This document shows, one piece after another, positions 1,711-26,416 of a stretch of 64,000 nt of DNA. The notes beneath the pieces were generated by a model that made no database searches, was not told the origin of the DNA, and saw only the letters and a list, made by a program, of their open reading frames with translations. Each line of letters opens with the position of its first letter. The stretch's first letter is position 1. The translations under genes and the position numbers were made by a program. The stretch covers positions 5,134-69,133 of the forward strand of contig CASEYK010000018.1 of assembly GCA_949292105.1 (NCBI GenBank), read 5' to 3'. Source of the DNA: an uncultured bacterium. GTDB lineage: Bacteria; Bacillota_I; Bacilli_A; RFN20; CAG-826.

Positions 1711-2745
1711 ATGAAAGACAAAATTGAGCAAATTTGGTCGGAAGCTCAAAAGGACATTGAACAAATAAAAAGTTGCGCCGATGTTGTTGAAATCCGCAAC
1801 AAATATTTATCGAAAAAAAGTGAGTTGTCAACCCTCTCTATCGCTTTAAATCAACTTCCGCCAGAACAAAAAAGGGAATTTGGCCAAGCTTTGGGCAAAG
1901 TTAAAGGTGCTATTAGTGAGAAACTTGAAGTGCTGAATAAAAAGTTGGCTGAAGAAGAATTGAATAAAAAACTTCAATCGGAGCAAATCGATATTACTCT
2001 ACCAGGGCGATTTAATACTTGCGGAGCAAAAAATCCTTATTATATCGTCAAGGATGAAATCGTTGATATTTTCCTGCGCATGGGTTTTGAAGTAGCTGAA
2101 GGTCCAGAAGTTGAGACTGATCGCTATAATTTTGAATTGCTCAATATTCCAAAAGATCATCCTTCCCGCGACATGCAAGATACATTCTATCTCGAAGATA
2201 GCCTTCTAATGCGCACCCAGACTTCGGCTATTCAAGCGCGCTTTATGGAGCAAAAGAAAGGACAGCCTTTCAAAATGATTTGTCCAGGCAAAACTTATCG
2301 AAGAGATGATGATGATGCTACGCATTCACATCAATTTTCTCAAGTTGAAGGATTGGTGGTCGATAAAGGTATCAATATGGCACATTTAAAAGCCACTTTA
2401 GAATTATTTGTTAAAAAGATGTTTGGTGAAAAGCGCAGCATTCGCTTGCGCTCATCTTTCTTCCCCTTTACCGAGCCAAGCGTTGAAATCGACATTTCAT
2501 GTGCAGCTTGCGGTGGCAAAGGATGCTCGATGTGTAAAGGAACAGGATATATTGAAATTTTAGGTGGTGGCATGGTCCATCCCAATGTTTTAAGAATGAA
2601 TGGTTACGATCCCGATGTCTATTCTGGCTTTGCTTTCGGCTTAGGAACGGAAAGAGTGGCCCTACTTCGATATGGCATCGACGATATTCGTAAATTATTC
2701 AATAACGATGTACGCTTTTTACATCAATTTAAAAAGAGAGTATAG
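1711..2745 (+). CDS. pheS: phenylalanine--tRNA ligase alpha subunit
   Basis: Class II aaRS motifs (FPFTEPS, GFAFGLGTERVA). The start was chosen at ATG 1711 with an upstream GGAG, not the earlier in-frame ATG at 1684. Confidence 0.95.
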   Translation: MKDKIEQIWSEAQKDIEQIKSCADVVEIRNKYLSKKSELSTLSIALNQLPPEQKREFGQALGKVKGAISEKLEVLNKKLAEEELNKKLQSEQIDITLPGRFNTCGAKNPYYIVKDEIVDIFLRMGFEVAEGPEVETDRYNFELLNIPKDHPSRDMQDTFYLEDSLLMRTQTSAIQARFMEQKKGQPFKMICPGKTYRRDDDDATHSHQFSQVEGLVVDKGINMAHLKATLELFVKKMFGEKRSIRLRSSFFPFTEPSVEIDISCAACGGKGCSMCKGTGYIEILGGGMVHPNVLRMNGYDPDVYSGFAFGLGTERVALLRYGIDDIRKLFNNDVRFLHQFKKRV

Positions 2746-2757
2746 GAGGACAAATTC

Positions 2758-5154
2758 ATGATCGTTTCATATAAAAGTTTGCAACAATTCGTTGATTTAG
2801 ATGGCCTTACTCCCGAAGAAGTCGCTCAAAAGTTGACATTTGCTGGTATCGAGGTGGAATCGATTACACATCTAGGTTATGGTACAAATCTTGTAATCGG
2901 TCACATTCTCGAATGTGAACCGCACCCAGATAGCGACCATCTTCATGTTTTAAAAGTTGATTTAGGTGCTCGATATGGCGTCAAACAAATTGTCTGCGGT
3001 GCTCCCAATGCAAGAAAAGGTCTTAAAGTTATTGTTGCTCGCGAAGGAGCGGTGCTGCCTGGTGGAAAAATCGGTCATAGTATTATCCGCGGTGTTGAGT
3101 CTGAAGGTATGTGCTGCTCGCTGCTTGAACTTGGCGTTGAGAGCAAGTATTTGAACGAAAAACAAACATCAGGTATTGAAGAACTCGATGAATCTTCCCC
3201 TGTTGGTGAAGAGCGAGTTTTAGAATATTTAGGTCTTGATGATACTCGCCTCGATTTAAATGTTTTAGCCAATCGTCCTGATTTGCTTTCACTTATCAAT
3301 GTCGCTCGTGAAGTCGGCGCTATTTTTAATCGTCCGATTAAAGAAATGTATGTCGAAATTTTACAAGACTTTGAGACTGATTTTAAAGTTGGCTCAAAAA
3401 CTTCAAAATGTTCTCAATTTTCTATCAAAGAAATTAAAGATATTAAAATCAAAAATTCACCGAAATGGATGAAACAAGTTTTGATGTCGATGGGAGTAAG
3501 AAGCATTAACAATATCGTCGATATTGGTAATTATGTCATGCTTTTAACCGGCCAGCCTCTTCACATGTATGACCTGGACAAACTTCCCGAACGCTCTTTA
3601 TTCGCCGAAGATGATTTAGAGCGACCTTTCATCGCTCTCGATGAAAAGGAATATCAATTGCAAAAAGGCGATATTTGCATTTGTTCTCACCATGAGCCGA
3701 TGTGTTTAGGTGGCATTATGGGTTCGCTTGCCTGCGCTGTCGATGAAAATAGTCACAACATTGTCATCGAAGCTGCTTCTTTCGATGGAGCGAGCATCCG
3801 CCATACATCAAATCGCCTCGGTTTAGCTTCTGAATCATCAATGCGCTTCGTAAAAGGGACAAATCATTTCCAATCGGAACAAGTAATCGATTTAGCGGCC
3901 TATTTAATTAAAACGCTCTGTGATGGTCAACATTTTTCTCAAACAAAAGTTTACCAGAGCGAGAAATATGAAGAAATTGTTATCAAATCGTCTACTGAGC
4001 GCATCAATGGTCGCCTTGGAACAACTTTTTCGAATAATGAAATTAAGCAGACTCTTGAGAGATTATATTTCCGCGTCAACATGAAAAATGATGGCTCTTT
4101 TACTTGTGCCGTTCCGCCTTTTAGGCTCGATGTCAAGGAGGATGCTGATTTAAGCGAAGAAGTGATTCGCTTGCTCGGCTACGAGCATATCGATGCTCGA
4201 CTTCCTCGCTTCGATACAACTGTCGGTCGACTTAGCCCTGTTCAAGAAAAAATCTCTTTCCTAAGAGAAATGTTATTAAATCGTGGGTTAGATGAATGTT
4301 TAACATATTCCTTAATTAGTGAAAAAGAAGCCCAATGTTTCAACTCTTTTTTCAAAGAAAACCCATATCGCTTACTCAATCCTTTAACAGATGACCATGT
4401 CATACTTCGCACCAATGTTATCCATTCTCTTTTAATGTCAGCTTCATACAATGTCGCCCGCCAAAACAAGAATCTCGCCTTTTTTGAAACATCGCTAATA
4501 AGCGATAAAAGTGCGAATACGCACCATTTGGCGGTTTGTTTGCTCGGTGAATGTTTAGAACAAGATCAATTAAAGCGCCGCCCATATGATTTTTATGATG
4601 CTAAAGGAATAGTGGAAGCAATCATGGAAGTAATCGGCATCGATAATTCGCGATACAAATTTGAAAAAAATACAACTGTCAGTGAACTCCATCCAGGAAA
4701 AAGTGCTTTAATCGTCGTTCAAAATAGACCGATTGGTTTCTTAGGCGAACTTCATCCTAAAATGAAGGAGTTTTACGATATAGGAAAAAATAGTGCTGTT
4801 GTTTTAGAAATTATTCTCGATGAACTTTTACAGTTGAGGACTAAAGAGGTTAAATCTAGCAACATTTCTAAATTCCCAAGCGTCAGCCGCGATCTAGCCT
4901 TGATTGTTAAAGACGAAGTGGACGCTCTTGATTTACTTCGCTTAATCAAATCAGTCGGCAAAGGTTTAGTTATCGATACTCATGTTTTCGATGTCTATAA
5001 AGGTGAAAACATCGAAAAAGGTTACAAATCGCTCGCCATCAACATTACTTATTGCAGTTTTGATCATACCCTCAGTGATAAAGAAGTAACATTGGTGGAA
5101 GATCAAATCAAATTTGAACTTAACAAGCGTTTTGGAACAATTTTAAGGGCATAA
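2758..5154 (+). CDS. pheT: phenylalanine--tRNA ligase beta subunit
   Basis: 798 aa with a tRNA-binding N-terminal domain, B3/4 and B5 domains and the PheT C-terminal domain, immediately after pheS. Confidence 0.95.
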   Translation: MIVSYKSLQQFVDLDGLTPEEVAQKLTFAGIEVESITHLGYGTNLVIGHILECEPHPDSDHLHVLKVDLGARYGVKQIVCGAPNARKGLKVIVAREGAVLPGGKIGHSIIRGVESEGMCCSLLELGVESKYLNEKQTSGIEELDESSPVGEERVLEYLGLDDTRLDLNVLANRPDLLSLINVAREVGAIFNRPIKEMYVEILQDFETDFKVGSKTSKCSQFSIKEIKDIKIKNSPKWMKQVLMSMGVRSINNIVDIGNYVMLLTGQPLHMYDLDKLPERSLFAEDDLERPFIALDEKEYQLQKGDICICSHHEPMCLGGIMGSLACAVDENSHNIVIEAASFDGASIRHTSNRLGLASESSMRFVKGTNHFQSEQVIDLAAYLIKTLCDGQHFSQTKVYQSEKYEEIVIKSSTERINGRLGTTFSNNEIKQTLERLYFRVNMKNDGSFTCAVPPFRLDVKEDADLSEEVIRLLGYEHIDARLPRFDTTVGRLSPVQEKISFLREMLLNRGLDECLTYSLISEKEAQCFNSFFKENPYRLLNPLTDDHVILRTNVIHSLLMSASYNVARQNKNLAFFETSLISDKSANTHHLAVCLLGECLEQDQLKRRPYDFYDAKGIVEAIMEVIGIDNSRYKFEKNTTVSELHPGKSALIVVQNRPIGFLGELHPKMKEFYDIGKNSAVVLEIILDELLQLRTKEVKSSNISKFPSVSRDLALIVKDEVDALDLLRLIKSVGKGLVIDTHVFDVYKGENIEKGYKSLAINITYCSFDHTLSDKEVTLVEDQIKFELNKRFGTILRA

Positions 5155-6229: not shown

Positions 6230-7156
6230 ATGGATAAACACATTCCTGTCTTACTAGACGAAACGATTGAACTTCTCAATGTCAAACCAAATGGTATCTA
6301 CATCGATCTAACGCTCGGTCGAGCCGGTCACGCTAGCGAAATCTTAAAAAGACTTGATAGCGGTATGCTCATCGGTGTGGATCGAGATGAAAAAGCTCTT
6401 ATTGAAAGCAAAACGCGCTTGGAGCAAATATCAGATCATTTCCAACTTGTTCATTCTAACTATTACAACATTGATCACATCCTCGATTCACTGCGGATTG
6501 AAGCAGTGGACGGGGTGCTGATGGATTTAGGTGTTTCATCCCCTCAATTCGATGAAAAAGAGCGAGGATTCTCTTACAGAGAAGATGCTTTGCTCGATAT
6601 GAGGATGGATCAAACGCAAAGCCTAGATGCATCATATATTATCAACAACTATTCGCTTGAAGAGTTAACGCGCATTTTTCGAGATTACGGCGAAGATAAG
6701 TACGCTTATCAAATCGCAAAAAGAATTGTTAAAGAGCGCGAAAATGCTCCAATTAAGACAACATTCCAATTAGTTGACATCATCAAGGCGAGCAAACCAC
6801 AGAAAGAATTGAAAAAAGTCGGTCACCCAGCCAAACAAATTTTTCAAGCACTGCGCATCGCTGTCAACGACGAGCTCAATTCCTTGTCCCAAGCGCTCAA
6901 AATTATTCCCGAAAGATTAAAAAAGCACGGCGGACGACTCGTCATTATCACTTTTCACTCATTGGAAGATCGAATGGTCAAACAAACTTTTAAATCACTA
7001 TGTGAGATTAAAGGCAACCGCGAGGACATTCCTGATGCTCCTCAAAACATTGAATATCGACTTGTTCAGCGCAAACCTATTGTTCCAACTGAACAAGAGC
7101 TGATAGATAACCACCGCGCTAAAAGCGCTAAACTGCGAGCTATTGAAAGGCTTTAA
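6230..7156 (+). CDS. rsmH: 16S rRNA (cytosine1402-N4)-methyltransferase
   Basis: MraW family motifs (IPVLLDE, DLTLGRAGH, DLGVSSPQ, FHSLEDR). Confidence 0.95.
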   Translation: MDKHIPVLLDETIELLNVKPNGIYIDLTLGRAGHASEILKRLDSGMLIGVDRDEKALIESKTRLEQISDHFQLVHSNYYNIDHILDSLRIEAVDGVLMDLGVSSPQFDEKERGFSYREDALLDMRMDQTQSLDASYIINNYSLEELTRIFRDYGEDKYAYQIAKRIVKERENAPIKTTFQLVDIIKASKPQKELKKVGHPAKQIFQALRIAVNDELNSLSQALKIIPERLKKHGGRLVIITFHSLEDRMVKQTFKSLCEIKGNREDIPDAPQNIEYRLVQRKPIVPTEQELIDNHRAKSAKLRAIERL

Positions 7157-10405: not shown

Positions 10406-13162
10406 ATGGATTTTAAATCGACGCTATTGATGAACAAGTCAAAGTTTGAAATGCGTGGTGGATTGGCTCAAAAAGAGCCGCTGCTCGTTCAAAAATGGCA
10501 AGATGAGCAATTATATCAAAAGATGAATGAAAACCGTCTAGGGGCCGAACCATTTATTTTGCACGATGGTCCGCCTTATGCTAATGGTGACATTCACTGC
10601 GGGCATGTTCTCAATCGCCTTTTGAAAGATTTTGTCGTCCGTCATAAAAATATGCAAGGCTATCTCACGCCGTTTGTGTTAGGGTGGGATACACATGGTT
10701 TACCAATTGAAAATCAAGTGACTAAATCAGGCGTGAATCGAAAGGCAACTCCCATTATTGAATTTCGTAAAAAATGTGAAGAATATGCTCTTTTGCAAGT
10801 CAATCGACAAAAAGAAGAAATGCTACGCCTCGGTATTGTTGGCGATGTTTCTCATCCTTATTTAACACTACAAAAAGAATACGAAGCCAAACAAATTGAA
10901 TGCTTTGCTCACATGGCTTTAAATGGGTTGATTTATAAAGGTCTTAAACCTGTTTATTGGTCGCCTTCGAGCGAAAGCGCGCTCGCGGAAGCTGAAATTG
11001 AATATCACGATATAAAATCGCATTCCATCTATGTTGCTTTTGATGTCAAAGATGGCAAAGGCTTGTTATCCAAAGGTGATAAAGTAGTTATTTGGACGAC
11101 AACACCTTGGACTTTACCTGCCAATTTAGCCATTTCTGCTCATCCTGATTTTATTTATGGCTTATATGATACAAATAGAGGAAAACTTGTTTTCCTCAAA
11201 GAATTTGCTCAGCGTTTGCAACAAGAACTTGATTTGGGCGAGATTAAACTTCTCAAAGAATTTAAAGGCCGAGATTTAGACGGTGTTGTTTGTCAGCATC
11301 CTTTTTATGATCGCGATTCGCTCCTTATCGTCGGCACACATGTTACCAATGAAACAGGTACTGGATTAGTTCATACCGCTCCCGGTCATGGTGTTGAGGA
11401 CTATAATGTTTGTTTGAATTATCATATTGATCCTTACTGTCCAGTGGATGAAAAAGGCTTTTTGACAAAAGATGCTGGCGAGCGTTTATCTGGTGTTTTC
11501 TATGAAGACGCCAATGATATTGTTTTGCAAATGCTTGAAGAAAACCACGCTCTTTTGAAACATGAAGTTTTCACCCATAGTTATCCGCATGATTGGCGAA
11601 CAAACAAGCCTTTGATTTTCCGTGCGACAAAACAGTGGTTTTGTTCTATTGAGCCAATTCGAACGAAACTGTTAGAACAAATTGATAAAACGCATTGGTA
11701 TCCTGCTTGGGGCAAAACGCGCATGCTCAATATGATTAAAGACCGACAAGATTGGTGTATCTCTAGACAAAGAGCATGGGGTGTACCAATTCCTATTATT
11801 TACTGCGAGGATGGGACACCAATCATTGAGAAAAAAGTTTTTGATCATATCGTTGACCTCATCAAAGAAAATGGTTCTAATATCTGGTATGAAAAGGACG
11901 CGAAAGATTTATTGCCAGAAGGATATACAAATGTTCATTCACCGAATGGTTTTTTCACAAAAGAAAATGATATTATGGATGTTTGGTTCGATTCAGGCTC
12001 TAGTTTTGATGGCGTTTTAATCGCCCGTGGTCAAAAATATCCTGCTGATTTATATTTAGAAGGCAACGACCAATATCGCGGATGGTTTAATTCGAGTTTA
12101 ATCATTTCAACTGCCGTGTTTGATAAAGCGCCATACAAAAATGTTGTTTCACATGGTTTTGTGGTCGATGAAAACTGGGATAAGATGTCCAAATCTAAAG
12201 GCAATGGAATTAATCCTAGCAAAATTGCTAATGTTTATGGCGCCGATATTTTAAGACTGTGGGCCGCCAGTGTCGATTATCAACAAGATGTTCGTATTTC
12301 TGAAAGCATTATTAATCAAGTGTCTGAAGTTTATCGCAAACTCCGCAACACATTGAAGTTTATGTCGTGGAATCTTGTCGATTTTAATCCAAAAAAATTG
12401 GCAAAAAACTATGAAAAAGTTGATTTATTCATTTTGGCGAGATTAGAAGAAGTGGTCAAAGAAGTCAATGATAATTTCGACCGTTATGATTTCGCTTCTA
12501 GCATCTCTTCATTGATGACTTTCCTCTCGACTGATTTAAGCGCTTTCTATCTCGATATCGCCAAAGATACTCTATACTGCGATAGTGCTTCAAGCCAAAG
12601 AAGAAATCAGATTCAATCAGTTATTTATCAAGTGAGCGAAACTGTTCTTCGACTATTAAATCCTTTCTTGCCATTTACAATGGATGAATTCAATCATAAT
12701 TTACCTGGCAAGCGCGCTGAAAATGTTCAGTTGTTAGATTATCCAAAATCAACTTCGAAATATGATCACCGTCTTCTCGAAGAATATGCGCTCTTTATTC
12801 AACTGAGAAACGATGTTTTAAAAGCTTTAGAAGTAGCAAGAAGTAATCAGATGATTGGTTCGAGCCAAGAAGCGCATGTTGTCATCAAAATAAATAATGA
12901 TGACATTCGTCAAATGTTTGATACAATAAAGGCAGATATTCGTGCCAAATTGTTTGTTGTCTCATCTATCGACACCGTCGATAAATTAGAAGGTGGCACG
13001 GAATATCAAGTATCAACCATTTTAGTAAAAAGACACGGTGGTCATTTTTGCAGCCGTTGTTGGAATTATGATGAAAATGCGAAAGAAGTGGAAGAAGGCA
13101 CCTATTTATGCCCTCGCTGTCAAGAAGTAATGGAGAAAGATTATGGAACAAAACGAGAATAA
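10406..13162 (+). CDS. ileS: isoleucine--tRNA ligase
   Basis: HIGH-type motif (PYANGDIHCGH), KMSKS, and a C-terminal zinc finger (CSRCW...CPRCQ). The start is at ATG 10406 after GGAGG, not at the in-leader ATG 10349. Confidence 0.95.
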   Translation: MDFKSTLLMNKSKFEMRGGLAQKEPLLVQKWQDEQLYQKMNENRLGAEPFILHDGPPYANGDIHCGHVLNRLLKDFVVRHKNMQGYLTPFVLGWDTHGLPIENQVTKSGVNRKATPIIEFRKKCEEYALLQVNRQKEEMLRLGIVGDVSHPYLTLQKEYEAKQIECFAHMALNGLIYKGLKPVYWSPSSESALAEAEIEYHDIKSHSIYVAFDVKDGKGLLSKGDKVVIWTTTPWTLPANLAISAHPDFIYGLYDTNRGKLVFLKEFAQRLQQELDLGEIKLLKEFKGRDLDGVVCQHPFYDRDSLLIVGTHVTNETGTGLVHTAPGHGVEDYNVCLNYHIDPYCPVDEKGFLTKDAGERLSGVFYEDANDIVLQMLEENHALLKHEVFTHSYPHDWRTNKPLIFRATKQWFCSIEPIRTKLLEQIDKTHWYPAWGKTRMLNMIKDRQDWCISRQRAWGVPIPIIYCEDGTPIIEKKVFDHIVDLIKENGSNIWYEKDAKDLLPEGYTNVHSPNGFFTKENDIMDVWFDSGSSFDGVLIARGQKYPADLYLEGNDQYRGWFNSSLIISTAVFDKAPYKNVVSHGFVVDENWDKMSKSKGNGINPSKIANVYGADILRLWAASVDYQQDVRISESIINQVSEVYRKLRNTLKFMSWNLVDFNPKKLAKNYEKVDLFILARLEEVVKEVNDNFDRYDFASSISSLMTFLSTDLSAFYLDIAKDTLYCDSASSQRRNQIQSVIYQVSETVLRLLNPFLPFTMDEFNHNLPGKRAENVQLLDYPKSTSKYDHRLLEEYALFIQLRNDVLKALEVARSNQMIGSSQEAHVVIKINNDDIRQMFDTIKADIRAKLFVVSSIDTVDKLEGGTEYQVSTILVKRHGGHFCSRCWNYDENAKEVEEGTYLCPRCQEVMEKDYGTKRE

Positions 13163-18023: not shown

Positions 18024-19782
18024 TAAAGTTAAGGCTCTTATCACCAATCTTAAGCATTTGCCCGGCGTTTATCTAATGCATAACGCGAAAGATGAAATTA
18101 TTTATATTGGCAAAGCCAAAGATTTATATAACCGCGTCAGCCAATATTTTTTAAGACCACAAGCTGGCAAAGTGGCCAAAATGGTTTTTGATGTCGATTA
18201 TTTTGAAACTATTATCACTAAAACTGAAAAAGAAGCACTGATATTAGAGATGAATCTTATTCAGACACATTATCCTAAATACAATATTCTTTTAAAAGAC
18301 GACAGCCATTATCCATATATTGCTCTTCATAAAAAAGGCGATCCGTTCTTGACGATTAAAAGAAATAACAAAGACCGCAATTACGATTATTTTGGTCCTT
18401 TTCCAAGCGGCAAAAGCGCACGAGGAACAATTGAACTTTTAAATAAAATTTTTCCTTTAAGAAAATGCTCTCCTTTAAAAAAGGAACCTTGCTTATATTA
18501 CCATTTAGGGCAATGTTTGGCTCCTTGTATTAAACCCGTCGATAGCAGTGTATATGAAACTATTGTTGAACAAATCAAAAGATTTTTTAAAGGCGATAGC
18601 ACCACAATCAAAAGAGAATATGAGAAAAAAATGCTTGATGCTTCTAGCGAACAAAAATATGAGCTAGCGGCTGAATATAAGAAAATAGTCGATTATATCG
18701 AACATATTAGTGCCGCTCAAAATGTTGAAAGCAACGACCATAAAGATTATGATGTGTTCGCCTATGCTACTCGAGACAATTATCTCGCTTTATCAGTCAT
18801 TGTATATCGCGATGGAATGGTTTTAGGCAAAAATAGTTTCGTTGTCGAACGGTTTGATGAACTAGGCGAACAAGTTCAAGATTTAATACTTCAGTATTAT
18901 CAAAAACATACAACGCCTGTTGAAATTGTCATTAATGATGAAAACGTCATCGCTTTATTAAGCGATTATTTGGATAGCCGAATTGAAAGCGTTACACGTG
19001 GACATCGTTTTGAACTAGTTTCTATGGCGCTCGAAAACGCTCAAAATGCTTTGGATGAATATTATCTAAGCCCGAGAATTGACGAAAATAAAATTGCTCT
19101 TTTGGAAGAACTAGGACAAATATTAAATATTGATACTCCTCTGCGCATTGAACTGTTTGATAATTCCCATTTGCAAGGCTCTAACCCCGTTGGAGCGGTG
19201 GTGACATTTATTAATGGCGAACCAGCCAAGTCGCTATATCGAAAATATCATATTGAGTGGAGCGAAGGAAAAGATGATTTAAAGTCGATGAAAGAAGTTG
19301 TTTGGAGACGCTATAAAAGGATGAAAGAAGAAAATAAAACCTTCCCATCCCTTATTTTGCTCGATGGTGGTCTAAACCAAATCAACGCTGCTAAAGAAGC
19401 CTTGAACGATCTAGATGTCAGCATCCCTATTTATGGACTTTATAAAAATGATAAACACCAAACTGAAGGTATTATCGATGAATATGGACAAAAATATAAA
19501 ATTGAGAATAAATCATTATTTTTCATGTTGACAAGAATGCAAGATGAAGTACATCGATTTGCTATTTCATTTCATCGATCACTAAGAGATAAAAGTTTCA
19601 AAAACTCTATTCTCGATGGTGTTAAAGGTTTGGGTGAAAAAAGAAAAGAAATAATTCTAAGAAATTATCAGGATATTAAAACATTAAAAAACGCCAGTGT
19701 CGAAGAGTTAAAACAATTTTTGCCTGTTGATGTCGCTTTATCTCTTTATCAATCACTTCATAACGATGATGAAAACAATTGA
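18016..19782 (+). CDS. uvrC: excinuclease ABC subunit C
   Basis: GIY-YIG N-terminus (GVYLMHNAKDEIIYIGKAKDL), UvrC and RNase H-like domains and a C-terminal HhH. The start overlaps the end of mutS2 by 8 nt. Confidence 0.95.
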   Translation: MNNKVKALITNLKHLPGVYLMHNAKDEIIYIGKAKDLYNRVSQYFLRPQAGKVAKMVFDVDYFETIITKTEKEALILEMNLIQTHYPKYNILLKDDSHYPYIALHKKGDPFLTIKRNNKDRNYDYFGPFPSGKSARGTIELLNKIFPLRKCSPLKKEPCLYYHLGQCLAPCIKPVDSSVYETIVEQIKRFFKGDSTTIKREYEKKMLDASSEQKYELAAEYKKIVDYIEHISAAQNVESNDHKDYDVFAYATRDNYLALSVIVYRDGMVLGKNSFVVERFDELGEQVQDLILQYYQKHTTPVEIVINDENVIALLSDYLDSRIESVTRGHRFELVSMALENAQNALDEYYLSPRIDENKIALLEELGQILNIDTPLRIELFDNSHLQGSNPVGAVVTFINGEPAKSLYRKYHIEWSEGKDDLKSMKEVVWRRYKRMKEENKTFPSLILLDGGLNQINAAKEALNDLDVSIPIYGLYKNDKHQTEGIIDEYGQKYKIENKSLFFMLTRMQDEVHRFAISFHRSLRDKSFKNSILDGVKGLGEKRKEIILRNYQDIKTLKNASVEELKQFLPVDVALSLYQSLHNDDENN

Positions 19783-19823
19783 AAACATTTTCACACTTGT
19801 TTAATATATTAAATGCTACATAT

Positions 19824-19900
19824 ACCCTCGTAGCTCAGTTGGATAGAGCAACAGCCTTCTAAGCTGTGGGTCAGGCGTTCGAGTCGCCTCGAGGGTGCCA
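19824..19900 (+). tRNA. tRNA-Arg (anticodon UCU)
   Basis: The cloverleaf was folded by hand: acceptor ACCCTCG/CGAGGGT, D-arm GCTC-AGTTGGATA-GAGC, anticodon stem ACAGC/GCTGT with loop CTTCTAA, T-arm AGGCG-TTCGAGT-CGCCT, discriminator G and an encoded CCA. Confidence 0.9.
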
Positions 19901-19915
19901 TTGAAAATACTGAGA

Positions 19916-19940
19916 CAGTCTGTCACGCAGGCTGTTTTTA
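19916..19940 (+). terminator. terminator after tRNA-Arg
   Basis: cagtctg-tcacg-caggctg hairpin followed by ttttta. Confidence 0.5.
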
Positions 19941-19957
19941 TTATCTTAAGATAATAA
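19938..19957. repeat. 20-bp perfect palindrome TTATTATCTTAAGATAATAA
   Basis: Exact reverse-complement symmetry, located between the tRNA terminator and the promoter of the nuclease gene. Confidence 0.8.
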
Positions 19958-19977
19958 TATAGCCAAAATCAACTAAA

Positions 19978-19990
19978 TATTGTCTCACAA
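19978..19990 (+). repeat. 13-bp motif TATTGTCTCACAA, copy A; overlaps the -35 of the nuclease promoter
   Basis: Near-identical copies occur at 21694-21706 and 21736-21748. Confidence 0.7.
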
Positions 19991-20009
19991 AACATAAATG
20001 TTATATAAT
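19980..20009 (+). promoter_or_regulatory. promoter of the restriction-endonuclease-like gene
   Basis: -35 TTGTCT (19980-19985), 18-nt spacer, -10 TATAAT (20004-20009). The ATG at 20016 lies ~7 nt downstream, so the transcript would be leaderless. Confidence 0.45.
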
Positions 20010-20015
20010 ACATTT

Positions 20016-21062
20016 ATGATGGAAAAAACCACAACAGAAAGCATTATCAAATATTTTCACTACCATAAAGGCGAAGTTTTTGAAGTAGATATCCTACATA
20101 AAAGAAAGTTTTCTGATATCAACTATGATTCTTTTAGAAAATTGGTATCCAGAATTTCAAATCGTGGCGAAGAATTAACGCATTTAGGTTTTAGCCTTTA
20201 TTACATCGGAAAAGCAAATGAAATGATGCTAGATGACATTGTCTTTAATTATTTTGTTCAAAAGATTAAAGTTGAACTCAATATTTTAAATTCGCTCATT
20301 GGCTCTAAAAATATCGAAGAAGAATTCAAATCTATCGTTAATCAATATCCTAATGTTTTGGTCGTGGTACCAATTCTTTTAGCAAAAAGAGAAGCTGAAA
20401 TTAAAGTACAAGATGCTGACGGTAGTTATGTTTTTAACTTTGTTAAAATGAACTATACAGTCGACCAATATACTCTTTTCATGAGAAATAGCGGTCTATT
20501 TGATTTATTACAAAACCACATCATTAATAACCTAGTCGATTATGTTTTAGGTATTGAAGTCGGAATGGACACTAACGGAAGAAAAAATAGAACAGGTCAT
20601 GTTATGGAAGACCTAGTTGAATCCTACCTCATTAAAGCTGGTTTAGTTAAGGGCAAGACATATTTCAAAGAAATGTGTGCTTCTGATGTCGAAAAGAAGT
20701 TCCATTTAGATTTATCTAAACTAAGCAACGATGGTAAAGCAGAAAAGAGATTTGACTTTGTGTTTGTTGGTGCATTAGGGACTGTTTTCGCCTGTGAATG
20801 TAATTTCTACAGCGGAGGCGGTTCGAAACTAAACGAAACTGCTAGAAGTTACAAAACATTAACTGAAGAATCAAGAGAAATAACAGGATTCCAATTCGTT
20901 TGGTTTACAGATGGAATTGGCTGGAATAGTGCAAAGCACAATTTGGAAGAAACATTTGACGTGTTGGAAAACCTTTACAACTTGCACGATTTAGAAAATG
21001 AAGCAATTAATCAATTGATTGATCCAACGAGATATTTAAATAAACTTTTAACTAATAAATAA
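20016..21062 (+). CDS. DpnII/MboI-family type II restriction endonuclease homolog with a ~55-aa N-terminal extension and no adjacent methyltransferase
   Basis: Motifs LNILNSLIGSKNI, GIEVGMDTNGRKNRTGHVMED and CNFYSGGGSKLNETARSYK, recognised from memory as the DpnII family (Pfam PF04556 type). The ATG at 19998 used in the ORF track lies inside the promoter spacer and is rejected. Confidence 0.5.
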   Translation: MMEKTTTESIIKYFHYHKGEVFEVDILHKRKFSDINYDSFRKLVSRISNRGEELTHLGFSLYYIGKANEMMLDDIVFNYFVQKIKVELNILNSLIGSKNIEEEFKSIVNQYPNVLVVVPILLAKREAEIKVQDADGSYVFNFVKMNYTVDQYTLFMRNSGLFDLLQNHIINNLVDYVLGIEVGMDTNGRKNRTGHVMEDLVESYLIKAGLVKGKTYFKEMCASDVEKKFHLDLSKLSNDGKAEKRFDFVFVGALGTVFACECNFYSGGGSKLNETARSYKTLTEESREITGFQFVWFTDGIGWNSAKHNLEETFDVLENLYNLHDLENEAINQLIDPTRYLNKLLTNK

Positions 21063-21073
21063 CGGAGGCTTGT

Positions 21074-21673
21074 ATGGCACTTATAAAATGTCCTGAATGT
21101 GGGAAAGATGTGAGCACTGCTGCAGATGTATGTCCGCACTGTGGCTACCCCATTAAAAAAGAATCTAAGGTTAAACCTGAAGAAAAACCAAACGAGAACT
21201 ATCCAAAGCCAAAAAATACCGCTTGGGTTGAAAAATGGAAAAGCAAGGCAAAGGCTACTAGATGGAAATGGACGCTTTTGTTTCTTGGTTCCTTAGTTCT
21301 TCTTGCGGTCTTTATAATTTTATTATGTACAGATAAAGAAGTTACTTCTTATGGTACATACTCAAAAACCGTTTGGATAATTATGGTTGGTATTTCATCA
21401 TTTATTGCATTTATTATGTTTACGCTATGGCTGGTTGCTTTAATTACAATCAGAGTTCGCGCTAGACAATATGATGGTTATACAGTTCTAGTATATGTCA
21501 GCTTTAATCATTGCTTAGTAGTTGAAGATGAAGTTCAAGATTCAGGATTTGTTAATAGATTTCTTTATGGCCAACTTCCTAACAAAAAGCAAGTATGGGT
21601 TAACATATCTGCATGGGATGGATCTGTTAAAATGGGCATCGGTAAAGAAGGCGACGAAAAGAATCTAATTTAG
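21074..21673 (+). CDS. zinc-ribbon transmembrane protein (CPxCG...CPHCG, K-rich linker, 2 TM helices, ~75-aa C-terminal domain)
   Basis: GGAGG RBS and a 12-nt gap after the nuclease gene indicate translational coupling. Confidence 0.6.
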   Translation: MALIKCPECGKDVSTAADVCPHCGYPIKKESKVKPEEKPNENYPKPKNTAWVEKWKSKAKATRWKWTLLFLGSLVLLAVFIILLCTDKEVTSYGTYSKTVWIIMVGISSFIAFIMFTLWLVALITIRVRARQYDGYTVLVYVSFNHCLVVEDEVQDSGFVNRFLYGQLPNKKQVWVNISAWDGSVKMGIGKEGDEKNLI

Positions 21674-21693
21674 TAAAAATGCCAAAAACATTG

Positions 21694-21706
21694 TATTATC
21701 TCACAT
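21694..21706 (+). repeat. 13-bp motif TATTATCTCACAT, copy B
   Basis: Direct repeat of copy A, differing by 1-2 mismatches. Confidence 0.7.
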
Positions 21707-21735
21707 AAAATAATTTATTTTTGAAGAAAGATTGG

Positions 21736-21748
21736 TATTATCTCACAA
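21736..21748 (+). repeat. 13-bp motif TATTATCTCACAA, copy C
   Basis: Direct repeat located 42 bp after copy B. Confidence 0.7.
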
Positions 21749-21773
21749 ATTTAAAGACATTTCATGTAAATAA

Positions 21774-21798
21774 CCATTTCGTGCCGAAGTGGTTTTTT
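21774..21798 (+). terminator. rho-independent terminator of the nuclease/zinc-ribbon operon
   Basis: ccatttcg-tgc-cgaagtgg hairpin followed by tttttt. Confidence 0.55.
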
Positions 21799-21939: not shown

Positions 21940-22347
21940 ATGGATGAAATAAAATGTCCTAAATGCGGAAAAGTATTAACAGATAATGAAAAAGAGAAAA
22001 AAATTTGTCAAGAATGTGGTTGTTTGTTTGAAATTATTGATTCTAAAAAAGGGAAAAAGTCTGAAGCCGTTAGCGCCATCATTAAAGATTATAGAAAAAT
22101 AAATTACAAATCTTGGATTAAGTTCTATATTTTCTTCTTATTCTTGTGGTCAATCTTAACTATCTTTGGAGTGTTACAAGGCTATGTCCACACATCAAAT
22201 CCATGGAATTGGATTATCTTGGTTGTAGGAGTGGTAGTTTACATTATTGTGTTTATCTTAATTCAATTTCAAATAAATGTTATAAGAGATATTTATATGT
22301 TAAAAATTAAAGTTGAAAAATTAGAAAATAAGAATGACAACGAATAA
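21940..22347 (+). CDS. zinc-ribbon (CPKCG...CQECG) two-TM membrane protein
   Basis: GAGG RBS. Same architecture as 21074..21673 but without the C-terminal domain. Confidence 0.55.
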   Translation: MDEIKCPKCGKVLTDNEKEKKICQECGCLFEIIDSKKGKKSEAVSAIIKDYRKINYKSWIKFYIFFLFLWSILTIFGVLQGYVHTSNPWNWIILVVGVVVYIIVFILIQFQINVIRDIYMLKIKVEKLENKNDNE

Positions 22348-22475
22348 TCATGCAAGAGTGTGAAGTTGTAGAAACAAGGAATTCTAAAGATGCTAACTAA
22401 TAAAACATTCAAATAAAAACATTAAACAAGTAACTCAAAAGTCTTTTCAAAGACCAAATTACTATTGTTAACTTA

Positions 22476-22700
22476 ATGTTGGAAATAATTTGGAAGATGA
22501 TAGCCTTGTATCCAGAAATAGGACAATATCTCCCGGCACCAGACATGGATCAAGTTTTAAGCGGGAAGACGAACAATCCTTTCTATGTTCTTTGCATTCA
22601 TATTATTGGGATACATTGTTCAAGAATCATCTTTTTAGATGATATTAAAAGAGTAAAACTAGAAAACAGCACTGACTATCAAAAAGAATTGATGGAATAA
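22476..22700 (+). CDS. hypothetical 74-aa ORF, possibly a gene remnant
   Basis: Isolated ORF in an AT-rich intergenic stretch with no recognisable motifs and a weak ribosome-binding site. Confidence 0.2.
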   Translation: MLEIIWKMIALYPEIGQYLPAPDMDQVLSGKTNNPFYVLCIHIIGIHCSRIIFLDDIKRVKLENSTDYQKELME

Positions 22701-22973
22701 ATATTATAAGTTTAATCAACAAGCATTATCAAATTTTAAAAGCTACGGAAAATAAAAAGAGCACTGAGAATTTTGAATGTTATTATAAAACTTTTAGTTA
22801 TTAATTTGACTAATTTTATTTAGAAAGCAATATATACAATAGTATTACAACGCATCAAATAAGCAGCAATTTTTTGTAGTATCAAATGTTTTTATACAAT
22901 TGCTTGGCAAATATCTGTAATCGTGAAAACATAATGCACATTTAGTTAATAAAATTAAGGATGCATAATAATG

Positions 22974-23024
22974 TTATCTCCAAAAAAATGTTATATTTCT
23001 TTAAATTTATCTCCAAAAAAATGT
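22974..23024 (+). repeat. two perfect 18-bp direct repeats TTATCTCCAAAAAAATGT (22974-22991 and 23007-23024) upstream of the ATPase gene
   Basis: Exact duplication 33 bp apart. The repeats sit inside a possible 43-codon upstream ORF (22971..23102) that has an LSPKKC repeat. Confidence 0.7.
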
Positions 23025-23082
23025 AAAATATTGTATGAAAACTTCACAAATGTTAAGATAAAAGTGATTAATGAGGCGATGT

Positions 23083-24381
23083 ATGGAAAGAAAAATATAT
23101 GATAAGCTCTTAAACTGGAAAAAATCATTACATAGAAAACCTTTAGTGTTACAAGGCGCTAGACAAGTTGGAAAAACTTATATAGTTAATCTGTTTGGGC
23201 AAAAAGAATATGAAAACTATGTTTATTGCAATTTCGAAAAAGAACCTATTTTAGAAGATTTTTTTAACGAGCTTAATCCAAATAAAATTATTAGAAATCT
23301 CAGTATTTATAAGCATAAAGAAATTATTTCAAACCATACCTTACTAATTTTTGATGAAATTCAAGCATCACCAAAAGCTTTAAATTCTCTGAAATATTTT
23401 AATGAAGAAGCCAAAGAATATCATATCATTGCTTTGGGATCTCTATTGGGTGTATCTCTAAATAGAGAAAATTCCTCTTTTCCAGTTGGACAAGTCGAGA
23501 TGATGACAATGTATCCGATGGATTTTGAAGAATTTTTAATTGCGGTTGGTAATGATACATCTAAACTGAGTTTAGAAATTAAAAATGCCTATAAAAATGA
23601 TACTGCTTTGCCTGCTGGTCTTCATGAGTTAGCTATTTCACTATACAAGAAGTATTTGTATGTTGGCGGAATGCCAGAAGCTGTAAAAGTTTTTGTTGAG
23701 ACGAACAATCCTGAAATGGTTAGAATTGTTCAACTCGCAATTCTCGATGCCTATTTTAGCGACATGAGCAAGTATAATAGAACGACTGAAATACCCAAAA
23801 CAAAATTAGTTTTTGAAAATATATCGACACAGCTTTCTAAGGAAAACAAAAAATTTCAATATAAATATTTAAAAAGCGGAGCGAGGTCATCACAGTATGC
23901 CGAAGCGATAAAGTGGGTTTGTAGTGCTGGCATTGCAAATCAATTATTTAAATTAGAAAAAGTAACTTTACCACTTGAATCAAATAAATCTAATGATGAT
24001 TTTAAATTTTATATGAGCGATGTTGGTTTATTATGTGCTAGTCAAAATATACGCATTGAAGATATTGAATTAGACCTCAATGATTCATCTTTTCGTGGTG
24101 GATTATGTGAAAACTATGTCTTCAATCAATTAACATTTGCTGGGCTCAAACCATATTACTGGACTAGTAATTTTGATGCCGAAATAGATTTTATCATTAG
24201 GTTAGGAATGGATATCATTCCCATTGAAGTTAAGTCTGGAGAAAATACTCGATCGAAGAGTTTGAATGTGTATATGAAGAGTATGAACCCGCCATACGCA
24301 ATTAGAATATCTCAAAAGAATTTTGGATTCGAAAATAATATTAAGTCCGTTCCATTGTATGCCGTTTATTGTATTAAATAA
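23083..24381 (+). CDS. COG1373-type AAA+ ATPase (AAA_14 N-domain plus DUF4143 nuclease-like C-domain)
   Basis: Walker A GARQVGKT, Walker B LLIFDEIQ and the C-terminal DFIIRLG...IPIEVKSG motif. The start is taken at ATG 23083 with an upstream GAGG. Confidence 0.7.
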   Translation: MERKIYDKLLNWKKSLHRKPLVLQGARQVGKTYIVNLFGQKEYENYVYCNFEKEPILEDFFNELNPNKIIRNLSIYKHKEIISNHTLLIFDEIQASPKALNSLKYFNEEAKEYHIIALGSLLGVSLNRENSSFPVGQVEMMTMYPMDFEEFLIAVGNDTSKLSLEIKNAYKNDTALPAGLHELAISLYKKYLYVGGMPEAVKVFVETNNPEMVRIVQLAILDAYFSDMSKYNRTTEIPKTKLVFENISTQLSKENKKFQYKYLKSGARSSQYAEAIKWVCSAGIANQLFKLEKVTLPLESNKSNDDFKFYMSDVGLLCASQNIRIEDIELDLNDSSFRGGLCENYVFNQLTFAGLKPYYWTSNFDAEIDFIIRLGMDIIPIEVKSGENTRSKSLNVYMKSMNPPYAIRISQKNFGFENNIKSVPLYAVYCIK

Positions 24382-24549
24382 CATCAGTTGCAGTTTGAAA
24401 AATAATTGACAAAATAATAAAGTGAAACGCAATTATTAAAACATAAGTTGTTTGAATAGTTAAAAAATTACAAAAATATGATAGTAAAATATTCCTTCAA
24501 AAATATAAAATATCTTATAGATATTAAAAATGGATAACGGGAGTTAGTT

Positions 24550-25440
24550 ATGAATGTTATTAGAAAAAATCTAGGCTATGCATTATTTACAGCTTTTTGT
24601 GTCTTGTTTGCGGTTTATTTTATTTATGATTTAACACAAATCAGTGATGCGTTAGATGTCGAAGGTTCAAATTTACCGATGATTTTATTGATTATCGACA
24701 TTCTTGCGTGCTTGATAATGATTTCAATATCAGCTGATGGATTATTAAGAACAAATAAAGAAGATGAAAGAAAAATATTAATTTGTTGTGTCTTTCTCGG
24801 GCTTGTTTATTCATTCGCAAATGCGTTAGGAACAATCGTGACAATGACTGAGATGCAAAATCTTTATAATAATGTGGGTATTCAAATTCATTGGCCAGCT
24901 GAAACTATCATGACATTAATATTTTTGATTTTTGGTTTTGTTGCGTTATTGTTCGGGGCGATATTGAATTATGAGAATAACCTAAAAATGAAAAAAGGAT
25001 TTATTATTGCAGGAATTGGTTGTATTTTTATCGCGCTTATCATTGCACTAGCAAACAGTGGCTCATCTCAAACAACTTTTCAAGTTATAATAGGTGTTTT
25101 TCAAATAATATTAATGATTTGTCTTGGCACTTATGTATTGTTTATCAATTGTTTTAACAATAATGCAGATGAAAAAATCAAAATATGTTCATTCTGTGGC
25201 TCCGAAGTTCAATCTGATAAACTGTACTGTGATAAATGTGGGCATAAAATGGATGCAGTCACAACAGCAGTAAAAAGCAAAAACAACAATTACTCAAATA
25301 AACAAAAGATATCCACATCTAAACTAGATCAAGAAGAAGCAGAAGACTCTTTGAGAAGGTTGAAACAAATGCTTGATGAGAAAATAATTACTGAAGAAGA
25401 ATATAATGAAAAGCGAAAGAAATATATCGATAGGCTTTAA
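24550..25440 (+). CDS. polytopic membrane protein (~6 TM) with a zinc ribbon (CSFCG...CDKCG) and a C-terminal SHOCT-like tail
   Basis: The hydrophobic N-terminal two thirds predict about six TM helices. The C-terminus reads LRRLKQMLDEKIITEEEYNEKRKKYI. Confidence 0.5.
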   Translation: MNVIRKNLGYALFTAFCVLFAVYFIYDLTQISDALDVEGSNLPMILLIIDILACLIMISISADGLLRTNKEDERKILICCVFLGLVYSFANALGTIVTMTEMQNLYNNVGIQIHWPAETIMTLIFLIFGFVALLFGAILNYENNLKMKKGFIIAGIGCIFIALIIALANSGSSQTTFQVIIGVFQIILMICLGTYVLFINCFNNNADEKIKICSFCGSEVQSDKLYCDKCGHKMDAVTTAVKSKNNNYSNKQKISTSKLDQEEAEDSLRRLKQMLDEKIITEEEYNEKRKKYIDRL

Positions 25441-25525
25441 TAATGTTTGTGAAATATTGATTAAATTATAAATAGTTGAGATTACTATAAAACTACTAAA
25501 AATCTACCAAATGCATTGATATTAT

Positions 25526-26416
25526 ATGGACAAAATTGATACTTTACTAGAAAAAGGCAACTACGAGTTAGTTCTTAAAATAACGAAAAATAGCGATGAT
25601 ATTAAATATCTTTTTTATCGTCTTGCCGCTTTTGTCGCACTTGAAAAATATGAAGACGCCCTAGCCCTCATCAATAGCAAAAAATCAATCATGGAGCAAG
25701 ATTTGCGTTTGCTCATTAAAACGCATATCAATATTTTATGTGTACTAGAAAGATTTGATGAAGCATACGATGCAGCGAAAGATTACGCTGAACTTCCATA
25801 TCATTCGCAAGAAGTGGAAGAAATTCTTAAAGAATTACCACATCGTATTAGAAATGAAGAAAAAAAAGTTTTAGGCAAAAAGAAACTGAGCGAAGAAGAA
25901 ATGCGTAAAATTCTTTTAAGCGAACAAAATGATGAAAGATTGCTCGGAATTCTTCAAAAAATCGATCGAATTGAAAAATATCTTCCCGAATTAGAGAATT
26001 TGCTTGTTGCATATCCGCATTTATCGATTCGCGTCTTTATACTTTTAACACTAGTTAAAGTTAAGGTTAATGGACCGATTAAATTTAAAAATAGTCGTGA
26101 CGAGATTCAAGAAGTGTGTCCGCAAGTCTTACATGAGCCTTTCTCGTCGACCATCGATAGAGAAATTTCCAACCGCATTAATAAATACGACGATCCGACG
26201 GTGGCAAGCGTTGCTCATCAAATATTTTCTTCTTATGTCCTCTTTGTTTATCCTGAGTATATCACAAGTGATATTGATATTTTATATCAATCTCTTATCT
26301 TACTATCTAAAAAATACCTAGCAATCAATCTTAATAATACTGAACAAGAACTGTCAAACAATCCAGCGATTAGCGAATGCATATCATCGCTTGAAAAAGC
26401 ATTAAAAAATATCTAA
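25526..26416 (+). CDS. hypothetical alpha-helical (TPR-like) protein
   Basis: 296-aa ORF with no recognisable catalytic motifs. Confidence 0.35.
   Translation: MDKIDTLLEKGNYELVLKITKNSDDIKYLFYRLAAFVALEKYEDALALINSKKSIMEQDLRLLIKTHINILCVLERFDEAYDAAKDYAELPYHSQEVEEILKELPHRIRNEEKKVLGKKKLSEEEMRKILLSEQNDERLLGILQKIDRIEKYLPELENLLVAYPHLSIRVFILLTLVKVKVNGPIKFKNSRDEIQEVCPQVLHEPFSSTIDREISNRINKYDDPTVASVAHQIFSSYVLFVYPEYITSDIDILYQSLILLSKKYLAINLNNTEQELSNNPAISECISSLEKALKNI

Follow-up and report, generated by a model that had tools for sequence, protein, structure and literature searches.

Within the 64,000-nucleotide stretch of DNA analysed here (the window; contig CASEYK010000018.1 of assembly GCA_949292105.1, positions 5,134 to 69,133, from an uncultured bacterium of the Bacilli_A lineage CAG-826), a variable segment opens behind uvrC at a tRNA-Arg gene. 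It carries an open reading frame (ORF) that joins the head of one gene to the body of a DpnII/MboI-type restriction endonuclease, followed by a gene for a zinc-ribbon membrane protein. The tRNA-Arg gene lies 3' of uvrC likewise in three related loci (L016, L026 and L050), and in L016 and L026 the homology of the uvrC-tRNA block with the window stops, by the blastn end points, at the tRNA-Arg gene or just past it. The ORF may start at 19998, 20016 or 20019 on the + strand and has a common stop ending at 21062; the readings from 19998 and 20016 comprise 354 and 348 residues, respectively. A preliminary description, made from the letters of the window, had seen in it a solitary endonuclease with an N-terminal extension and a membrane partner. 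Comparison with related loci gives a different picture, in which the ORF almost certainly arose as a deletion chimera of a classical dpnM-dpnA-dpnII cassette.

The endonuclease part belongs to the DpnII/MboI family, as had been proposed from the motifs LNILNSLIGSKNI, GMDTNGRKNRTG and NFYSGGGSKLNETARSY, all three of which are present in the ORF (19998/20016..21062, + strand). The Pfam profile DpnII (PF04556), a family assigned to PD-(D/E)XK group 37 (PMC3424549), is matched with E=3.1e-92 and 309.3 bits (cutoff 23), and the PADLOC profile REase_II with E=2.3e-88. Both matches begin at residue 87 of the 354-residue reading and cover the profiles at positions 29-277 of 278 (Pfam) and 34-288 of 290 (PADLOC) only. 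The same boundary recurs in the 119 closest proteins, which are about 300 residues long and 83-94% identical, cover 72-76% of the query and align to residues 87-354 only. At the DNA level, blastn comparison with the dpnII genes of L001-L005, L021 and L026 places the onset of homology sharply at 20255/20256, with none upstream. Missing from the chimera, according to the alignment, is the homologues' own N-terminus of 32 residues (MANRDFNxWLSTMKDSIATWTYYTDFxKVYEN). This segment is conserved family-wide, even in proteins of 50-65% identity from Akkermansia, Clostridium and Mobiluncus metagenome-assembled genomes (MAGs), and its conservation marks it as a part of the enzyme under constraint. The preliminary description had been right that the N-terminus is abnormal, and wrong in reading it as an extension of about 55 residues beyond the family core; the alignment indicates that 80 foreign residues replace the family's own first 32.

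Structural comparison was at most consistent with a PD-(D/E)XK fold, since Foldseek of a homologue model against the PDB gave weak matches to PD-(D/E)XK nucleases (best Can2, E=1.4e-3, template modelling score 0.25). A sequence search of the PDB returned no solved structure at E<=1. The AlphaFold2 model of a canonical homologue reached a predicted local distance difference test (pLDDT) score of 66.6, with about 40-46 for the N-terminal 30 residues, and the model of the chimera reached 46.8; neither is good enough to show what the N-terminus does. The underlying alignments were shallow because the 120 listed matches are nearly all 83-94% identical.

The foreign head has homologues of its own. 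A phmmer search against 1.84 billion representatives matched the chimera N-terminus to a family of proteins of approximately 212-230 residues, whose gene we name gene X. The best match, P0121 (E=1e-15, 51% identity), aligns its residues 1-79 with query residues 7-86. Around 80 of the roughly 220 residues of gene X remain in the window, with the family-invariant residues kept in the alignment, and the C-terminal 140 or so are deleted. The relationship extends into the flanking DNA, where window positions 19899-20205 are 74% identical to positions 675-980 of the P0121 locus (L015), spanning a hairpin, a promoter-like element and the ATG. Because all three are shared with gene X of L015, the true start is the ATG at 20016, the coordinate given originally. 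Full-length gene X from L026, a related MAG, gave a PADLOC AbiEi match (E=1.7e-6; one model covered 26-211 of 230), and members of the family matched Pfam AbiEi_4 and DUF6088 below threshold only; these profiles point to an AbiEi-like winged-helix protein family. Pfam found no meaningful match for the 93-residue N-terminus of the window ORF alone, and a word-indexed protein search with the N-terminal 86 residues found nothing. Gene X of L026 had no match in the Joint Genome Institute (JGI) metagenomes, and gene X had none in viral contigs. The conspecific fusion proteins fall in a cluster whose representative is a 300-residue canonical enzyme.

A second gene, named gene Y (about 180-200 residues), overlaps the end of gene X in L015 (1446-1991) and in L026 (7617-8222, before dpnM), and is also found in L050 (6504-7067). 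Its product carries a C-terminal XRE-type helix-turn-helix (HTH) and gave weak matches to models of restriction-modification (R-M) control proteins (E=0.001), so that it may be the controller of the R-M cassette in L026. In its profile matches the gene X family, donor of the first 80 residues, resembles the AbiEi/DUF6088-type winged-helix proteins; of gene X itself, the window retains no more than the N-terminal third. The setting differs from that of the AbiE type IV toxin-antitoxin systems: there the AbiEii nucleotidyltransferase adjoins AbiEi, whereas gene X in L015 and L026 neighbours the XRE-type HTH protein and no AbiEii.

The canonical arrangement of the family was established from the GTDB species representatives, among which 30 loci with a close endonuclease homologue were found. 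All 30 match residues 81-348 of the 348-residue reading only, and none carries the fusion (0/30). DpnM-like and/or DpnA-like genes lie directly upstream in 27 of them by tblastn, in agreement with the Pfam annotation of L001-L003, and the order MethyltransfD12, N6_N4_Mtase, DpnII is canonical in the closest relatives (L001-L005, L021-L049). L026 is the key comparison, because it holds at the same chromosomal site the layout mutS2, uvrC, tRNA-Arg (TCT), gene X (219 residues), gene Y (201 residues), dpnM, dpnA and dpnII (298 residues). Deleting about 2.8 kb of it, from gene X codon 80 (near L026 7240) to dpnII codon 33 (L026 10001), exactly recreates the window ORF. The course of events shown by this comparison starts from an ancestral cassette downstream of uvrC and tRNA-Arg with the gene order X, Y (XRE-type HTH), dpnM, dpnA, dpnII. 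A single illegitimate deletion of about 2.8 kb then took away the remainder of gene X, gene Y and the two methyltransferase genes, and with them the 32 conserved residues at the N-terminus of the endonuclease; the ends were joined in frame behind the gene X promoter and its probably leaderless start codon. The junction reads AAT TAT TTT followed by GTT CAA AAG, with microhomology of at most 1 nt, which leaves a repeat-mediated deletion unsupported. The window layout was also considered as the ancestral one and rejected, as full-length genes of both parent families occur independently and homologues from different phyla keep the canonical N-terminus.

The junction could in principle be an assembly or binning artefact that joined two unrelated contigs. 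No observation favours this, and its chance is negligible: nine contigs (ENA scaffolds, k87 contigs and Logan contigs), assembled independently from different samples and with different assemblers, show the identical junction, and each spans both sides of it. The ENA assemblies ERZ16268187, ERZ16268222, ERZ16268077 and ERZ17292903 are among the sources of the conspecific contigs. Outside one species-level cluster of at least 99.4% identity, the fusion was absent from the 30 GTDB loci, the 1.84 billion representatives and the JGI metagenomes.

Other loci show further states of the endonuclease gene. L050 has the order uvrC, tRNA-Arg, gene Y, unrelated genes and a dpnII fragment (core-query residues 124-265; a truncated ORF of 126 residues), with no methylases; from its layout it is an independent event of dpnII decay at the same tRNA-Arg site, and the region concerned is L050 6186-10429. 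In L045, dpnII is split by an insertion of about 1.46 kb; L042 holds an additional dpnII fragment of 58 residues (12944-13117), and P0001 is a 453-residue homologue with an internal tandem duplication. In L001-L004 (e.g. L001 4087-13708; Erysipelotrichaceae MAG), an intact DpnII system is followed by a 907-residue protein with no Pfam match, a 1707-residue DEAD/Helicase_C/MZB protein and a NERD-helicase, and these surroundings look like a larger defence island.

The expression signals in front of the chimera appear to have come along with gene X. The upstream hairpin is kept in the window, in L015 (687-714) and in L026 (~6820-6845) with compensatory base changes, and folds with -14.4, -14.6 and -16.2 kcal/mol, respectively. 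As L015 has no tRNA at the hairpin, the hairpin is part of the gene X cassette and not of the tRNA. The promoter proposed for both genes at 19980-20009 was located as a site with 10 of 12 consensus matches; promoter-like sites in this AT-rich stretch occur at chance level in the scan (34 found vs 37.8 expected), and the site is credible because a near-identical sequence precedes full-length gene X in L015. The TATAAT box ends 6 nt before the ATG at 20016 with no Shine-Dalgarno sequence, and the same arrangement is kept in L015 (~757-796; window 19980-20018). Since the -10 box ends so close to the ATG, the mRNA of the chimera is probably leaderless. At the other end, the terminator previously placed at 21774-21798 was confirmed as a hairpin with a T-run, which the consensus terminator scan had not picked up. 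The coordinates of all features are given in Table 1.

Table 1. Features of the chimeric dpnII locus, in window coordinates.
Feature	Position	Strand	Basis or remark
tRNA-Arg (TCT)	19824..19900	+	ARAGORN; left edge of variable segment
Terminator-like hairpin, 5' of gene X	19912..19938	+	Scan; fold
Gene X promoter-like site TTGTCT-18-TATAAT	19980..20009	+	10/12 consensus matches
Chimeric ORF, 348 aa (354 aa from ATG 19998)	20016..21062	+	Gene X codons 1-80 fused in frame to dpnII codons 33-300
Gene X 5' fragment	20016..20255	+	phmmer homology
Deletion junction	20255..20256	+	blastn homology onset
dpnII 3' part, 268 codons	20256..21062	+	Pfam, PADLOC, alignment
GGAGG, ribosome-binding site of zinc-ribbon gene	21064..21068	+	Sequence reading
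Zinc-ribbon / two-transmembrane (2-TM) membrane protein gene, 199 aa	21074..21673	+	Pfam
Terminator-like hairpin and T-run, 3' of zinc-ribbon gene	21772..21798	+	RNAfold -12.7 kcal/mol

The absence of a nearby methyltransferase, noted in the preliminary description, was borne out over a wider span. Precomputed Pfam annotation of conspecific contigs (at least 99.4% identical) shows no DNA methyltransferase from about 8 kb before the window to position ~49.6 kb; the sole methylases there are the RNA methylases SpoU and RsmH, and the genes listed are otherwise housekeeping genes. A tblastn search with the DpnM-like and DpnA-like proteins of L002 found no remnant in the 64-kb window (best E=0.1). 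The statement that GATC is not depleted proved wrong, as dinucleotide shuffles contain 273 +/- 14.5 sites and the window 149. A trinucleotide Markov model predicts 307, which gives an observed/expected ratio (O/E) of 0.48 and makes GATC the second most depleted 4-bp palindrome. Among 19 related loci that were compared, 18 have an O/E of 0.23-0.63 and L049 has 0.88; the depletion extends to L016 and L019, whose 16.6-kb loci contain no DpnII homologue. Being lineage-wide, the depletion reflects a long exposure of the lineage to GATC restriction and is uninformative on the current enzyme of this strain. Another palindrome, ACGT, is also rare in the window (1-64000), with 18 sites observed against 83 expected (trinucleotide Markov; O/E 0.22) and an O/E of 0.66-1.16 in related genomes, which suggests that this species has, or had until recently, an active restriction system specific for ACGT.

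A cell that loses the methylase of its type II R-M system dies unless it loses the endonuclease too, a behaviour known as post-segregational killing. Unmethylated DNA with approximately one GATC per 430 bp, as in the window, would be shredded by an active enzyme. Cells would have outlived the loss of both methylases only if that event also put the endonuclease out of action, and a deletion that took the enzyme's conserved N-terminus along with the methylases is of the sort that cells would be expected to survive. Most likely, then, the truncated fusion has no catalytic activity or is unstable. On these grounds it is likely that the chimera represents a recent, inactive remnant of an R-M system, which would now drift neutrally and owe its intact look solely to the recency of the deletion. 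Of the options left open in the preliminary description, inactivity is the one favoured here.

Variation within the species is in line with such drift. The exact 354-residue allele of the window has no record in the protein collection, whereas look-ups through the zinc-ribbon protein led to conspecific contigs. Nine conspecific contigs (L006-L012, L051 and L052) were compared with the window. The 1047-nt chimera has three single-nucleotide polymorphisms (SNPs) among the nine contigs, all nonsynonymous (H28N, N68D and V114D) and none synonymous. The combined count for mutS2, uvrC, tig and lon is 84 synonymous to 16 nonsynonymous SNPs (Fisher p=0.0055 against the chimera, a comparison in which the chimera contributes just those three SNPs). 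In four of the nine contigs, T20004A alters the first T of the -10 hexamer. SNP density drops at the tRNA (18076-21673): uvrC has 63 SNPs over 1.7 kb, the chimera and the zinc-ribbon gene together 4 over 1.65 kb. This suggests a recent spread, within the population, of the segment on the right of the tRNA.

Several observations weigh against an inactive remnant. No substitution is found at the 156 near-invariant positions (at least 98% conserved in the 119 homologues), including the candidate PD-(D/E)XK catalytic residues. A decaying pseudo-enzyme, with catalytic residues clearly mutated, had been named in the preliminary description among the outcomes that would refute it. The branch leading to the window has 38 synonymous and 9 nonsynonymous changes, compared with 36 and 8 on the branch of the intact L005 gene, and the pairwise ratio of nonsynonymous to synonymous rates (dN/dS) against L005 over the retained 268 codons is 0.023, with no decay between the species. 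Nearly all of the divergence therefore arose under purifying selection, which leaves two options, a recent deletion or a fusion that selection still maintains. Moreover, the fusion is in frame, its promoter is kept and each of the 10 sequences sampled has it with an uninterrupted frame; the test for relaxed constraint has three SNPs to work with; and an unlinked Dam-type methylase could lie outside the span read (the 64-kb window and the conspecific +/-10-kb flanks).

The last of these points leads to a second reading, in which the chimera is an active, methylation-sensitive GATC endonuclease and the host is guarded by a Dam/DpnM-type methyltransferase encoded elsewhere, so that the deletion was tolerated. 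The undamaged near-invariant core, the promoter and open frame in every sampled strain and the under-representation of GATC (O/E 0.48) would all agree with such a "separated" R-M system, and L043 offers a full-length homologue (2249-3118) with no methylase within 13 kb and with TIR-like genes adjacent. Separated systems are also documented elsewhere, accounting for 57 of 272 solitary restriction endonuclease (RE) genes (PMC3488263). The conserved first 32 residues have nevertheless given way to 80 foreign ones, and it was exactly the cognate methylases that were deleted. The GATC depletion extends to loci without any DpnII homologue (L016 and L019), the SNPs are three nonsynonymous to zero synonymous with one V>D change in the endonuclease part, the -10 box is mutated in some strains, and the fusion is seen in no other species. 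We regard a separated, active system as unlikely.

The zinc-ribbon gene downstream was the other half of the proposed nuclease-membrane module. Its own GGAGG and the zinc ribbon were both recovered, and the gene starts 11 nt past the stop codon of the chimera, a spacing earlier counted as 12. The protein has an N-terminal zinc ribbon (Pfam Zn_ribbon_3, E=1.8e-7; UPF0547, E=2.2e-7) followed by hydrophobic stretches, and about 65 full-length homologues were found. In L016, from a related species (70% identity), uvrC and tRNA-Arg are followed by 3.3 kb of other genes, including a DUF1016/YhcG nuclease gene, before the zinc-ribbon gene, and homology with the window stops at the tRNA end and returns at 21073, 1 nt before the zinc-ribbon ATG. 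In the more distant L019 (50% identity), the gene stands between tig-lon-engB and valS with no nuclease gene adjacent. Conversely, the genes downstream of endonuclease homologues encode the 907-residue protein and helicases in L001-L004 and a lipoprotein in L005, and no zinc-ribbon homologue was found in the 30 GTDB DpnII loci or downstream of the endonuclease in L001-L005. The pairing with the chimera is confined to one species-level cluster. As zinc-ribbon and DpnII genes each occur with other neighbours, their adjacency is a positional accident beside a variable site, and by this comparison the zinc-ribbon gene is a conserved chromosomal resident at the right flank of the variable segment and not a functional partner. 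Read-through from the gene X promoter, and with it the co-transcription suggested before, is plausible, because the scan found no terminator or + strand promoter-like site between the two genes.

The toxin or abortive-infection module is accordingly not upheld: its dpnII part derives from a classical operon, and its pairing is not conserved in L016, L019 or the 30 DpnII loci. A broader version of the idea is that the fusion has been neofunctionalised, with the AbiEi-type winged-helix head and the PD-(D/E)XK body acting as a regulator, a DNA sensor or a triggered toxin, possibly together with the co-transcribed zinc-ribbon protein. The in-frame fusion to a complete N-terminal region of the X family with its invariant residues kept, the undamaged nuclease core, the zinc-ribbon gene 11 nt on with no terminator between, and the precedent of winged-helix/nuclease fusions that are real restriction enzymes (PMC11037411) would be expected on this account. 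It sits poorly with the zinc-ribbon pairing, which is not conserved (the zinc-ribbon gene has other neighbours in L016 and L019, and DpnII homologues have other downstream genes), and with the zinc-ribbon protein itself, for which PADLOC gave no defence-family match. The SNP pattern, which suggests relaxed constraint, and the restriction to a single species (one cluster of at least 99.4% identity) speak against it too, and against the repurposed DNA sensor that had been offered as an example. Neofunctionalisation is thus very unlikely in our assessment. That the chimera is a functional, self-targeting-safe nuclease or DNA sensor, gated by its winged-helix head, maintained by selection and expressed with the zinc-ribbon protein, we consider highly improbable.

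The interval from the zinc-ribbon gene to tig includes a stretch of low GC (0.27-0.32; 22000-26400) with further genes, probably a small defence or variable island. It holds the gene of a 436-residue AAA_14 + DUF4143 ATPase (23071-24381, +) that matches the PADLOC candidate defence family PDC-S01 with E=2.9e-164, and, at 24550-25440 (+), that of a small membrane protein, the third with a zinc ribbon, which carries a SHOCT domain at its C-terminus. Closer to the chimera, a 135-residue zinc-ribbon/transmembrane protein is encoded at 21940-22347 (+); its start resembles that of the 199-residue protein, of which it is likely a paralogue, and its gene is frameshifted by a 1-nt deletion at 22267 in two of the nine conspecific contigs.

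The chimera may be compared with three known classes. Residues 87-354 form a high-scoring member of the family that includes the DpnII cassette of Streptococcus pneumoniae (dpnM-dpnA-dpnB), MboI and LlaDCHI; unlike these cassettes, the chimera has neither of the methyltransferase genes, lacks the N-terminal 32 residues and carries a foreign 5' end, so that it falls short of a working DpnII system on two defining points, completeness of the domain and linkage to a methylase. Among solitary RE genes, 99 of 272 were classed as fragments and 57 of 272 had distant methylases (Ershova et al. 2012, PMC3488263). The fragments share with the chimera a truncated RE, no linked methyltransferase, and orthologues in complete R-M systems with a methyltransferase upstream, but in the chimera the RE fragment also sits, in frame, behind the promoter and first codons of a different gene, and its pre-deletion layout is visible in L026. 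With winged-helix/endonuclease fusions such as DpnI and FcyTI (Helbrecht et al. 2024, PMC11037411) there is a formal likeness, a winged helix and a PD-(D/E)XK nuclease at GATC. DpnI-type fusions, however, are conserved families with a winged helix that senses N6-methyladenine (6mA), whereas the chimera is a deletion product of a single species with an AbiEi-type head. Similarity to the DpnI winged helix was not detected, although no direct comparison with it was run.

Decay of an R-M system is an ordinary outcome, here documented unusually cleanly. Left to an automated pipeline, the ORF would be annotated as a "type II restriction endonuclease", with the risk that it is then taken for an orphan toxin or a novel gene of defence. 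If the fusion were active, it would be a rare natural restriction enzyme that survives without a linked methylase, and if the chimera were functional, it would show the repurposing of a restriction enzyme after methylase loss. The uvrC/tRNA-Arg site emerges as a recurrent hotspot of defence-gene gain and loss in these gut and rumen Bacilli, because related genomes carry other cargo or a separately truncated dpnII there. The comparison with L026 shows one route by which an "addictive" R-M system can be shed without cell death, in which one deletion takes the methylases and cripples the endonuclease.

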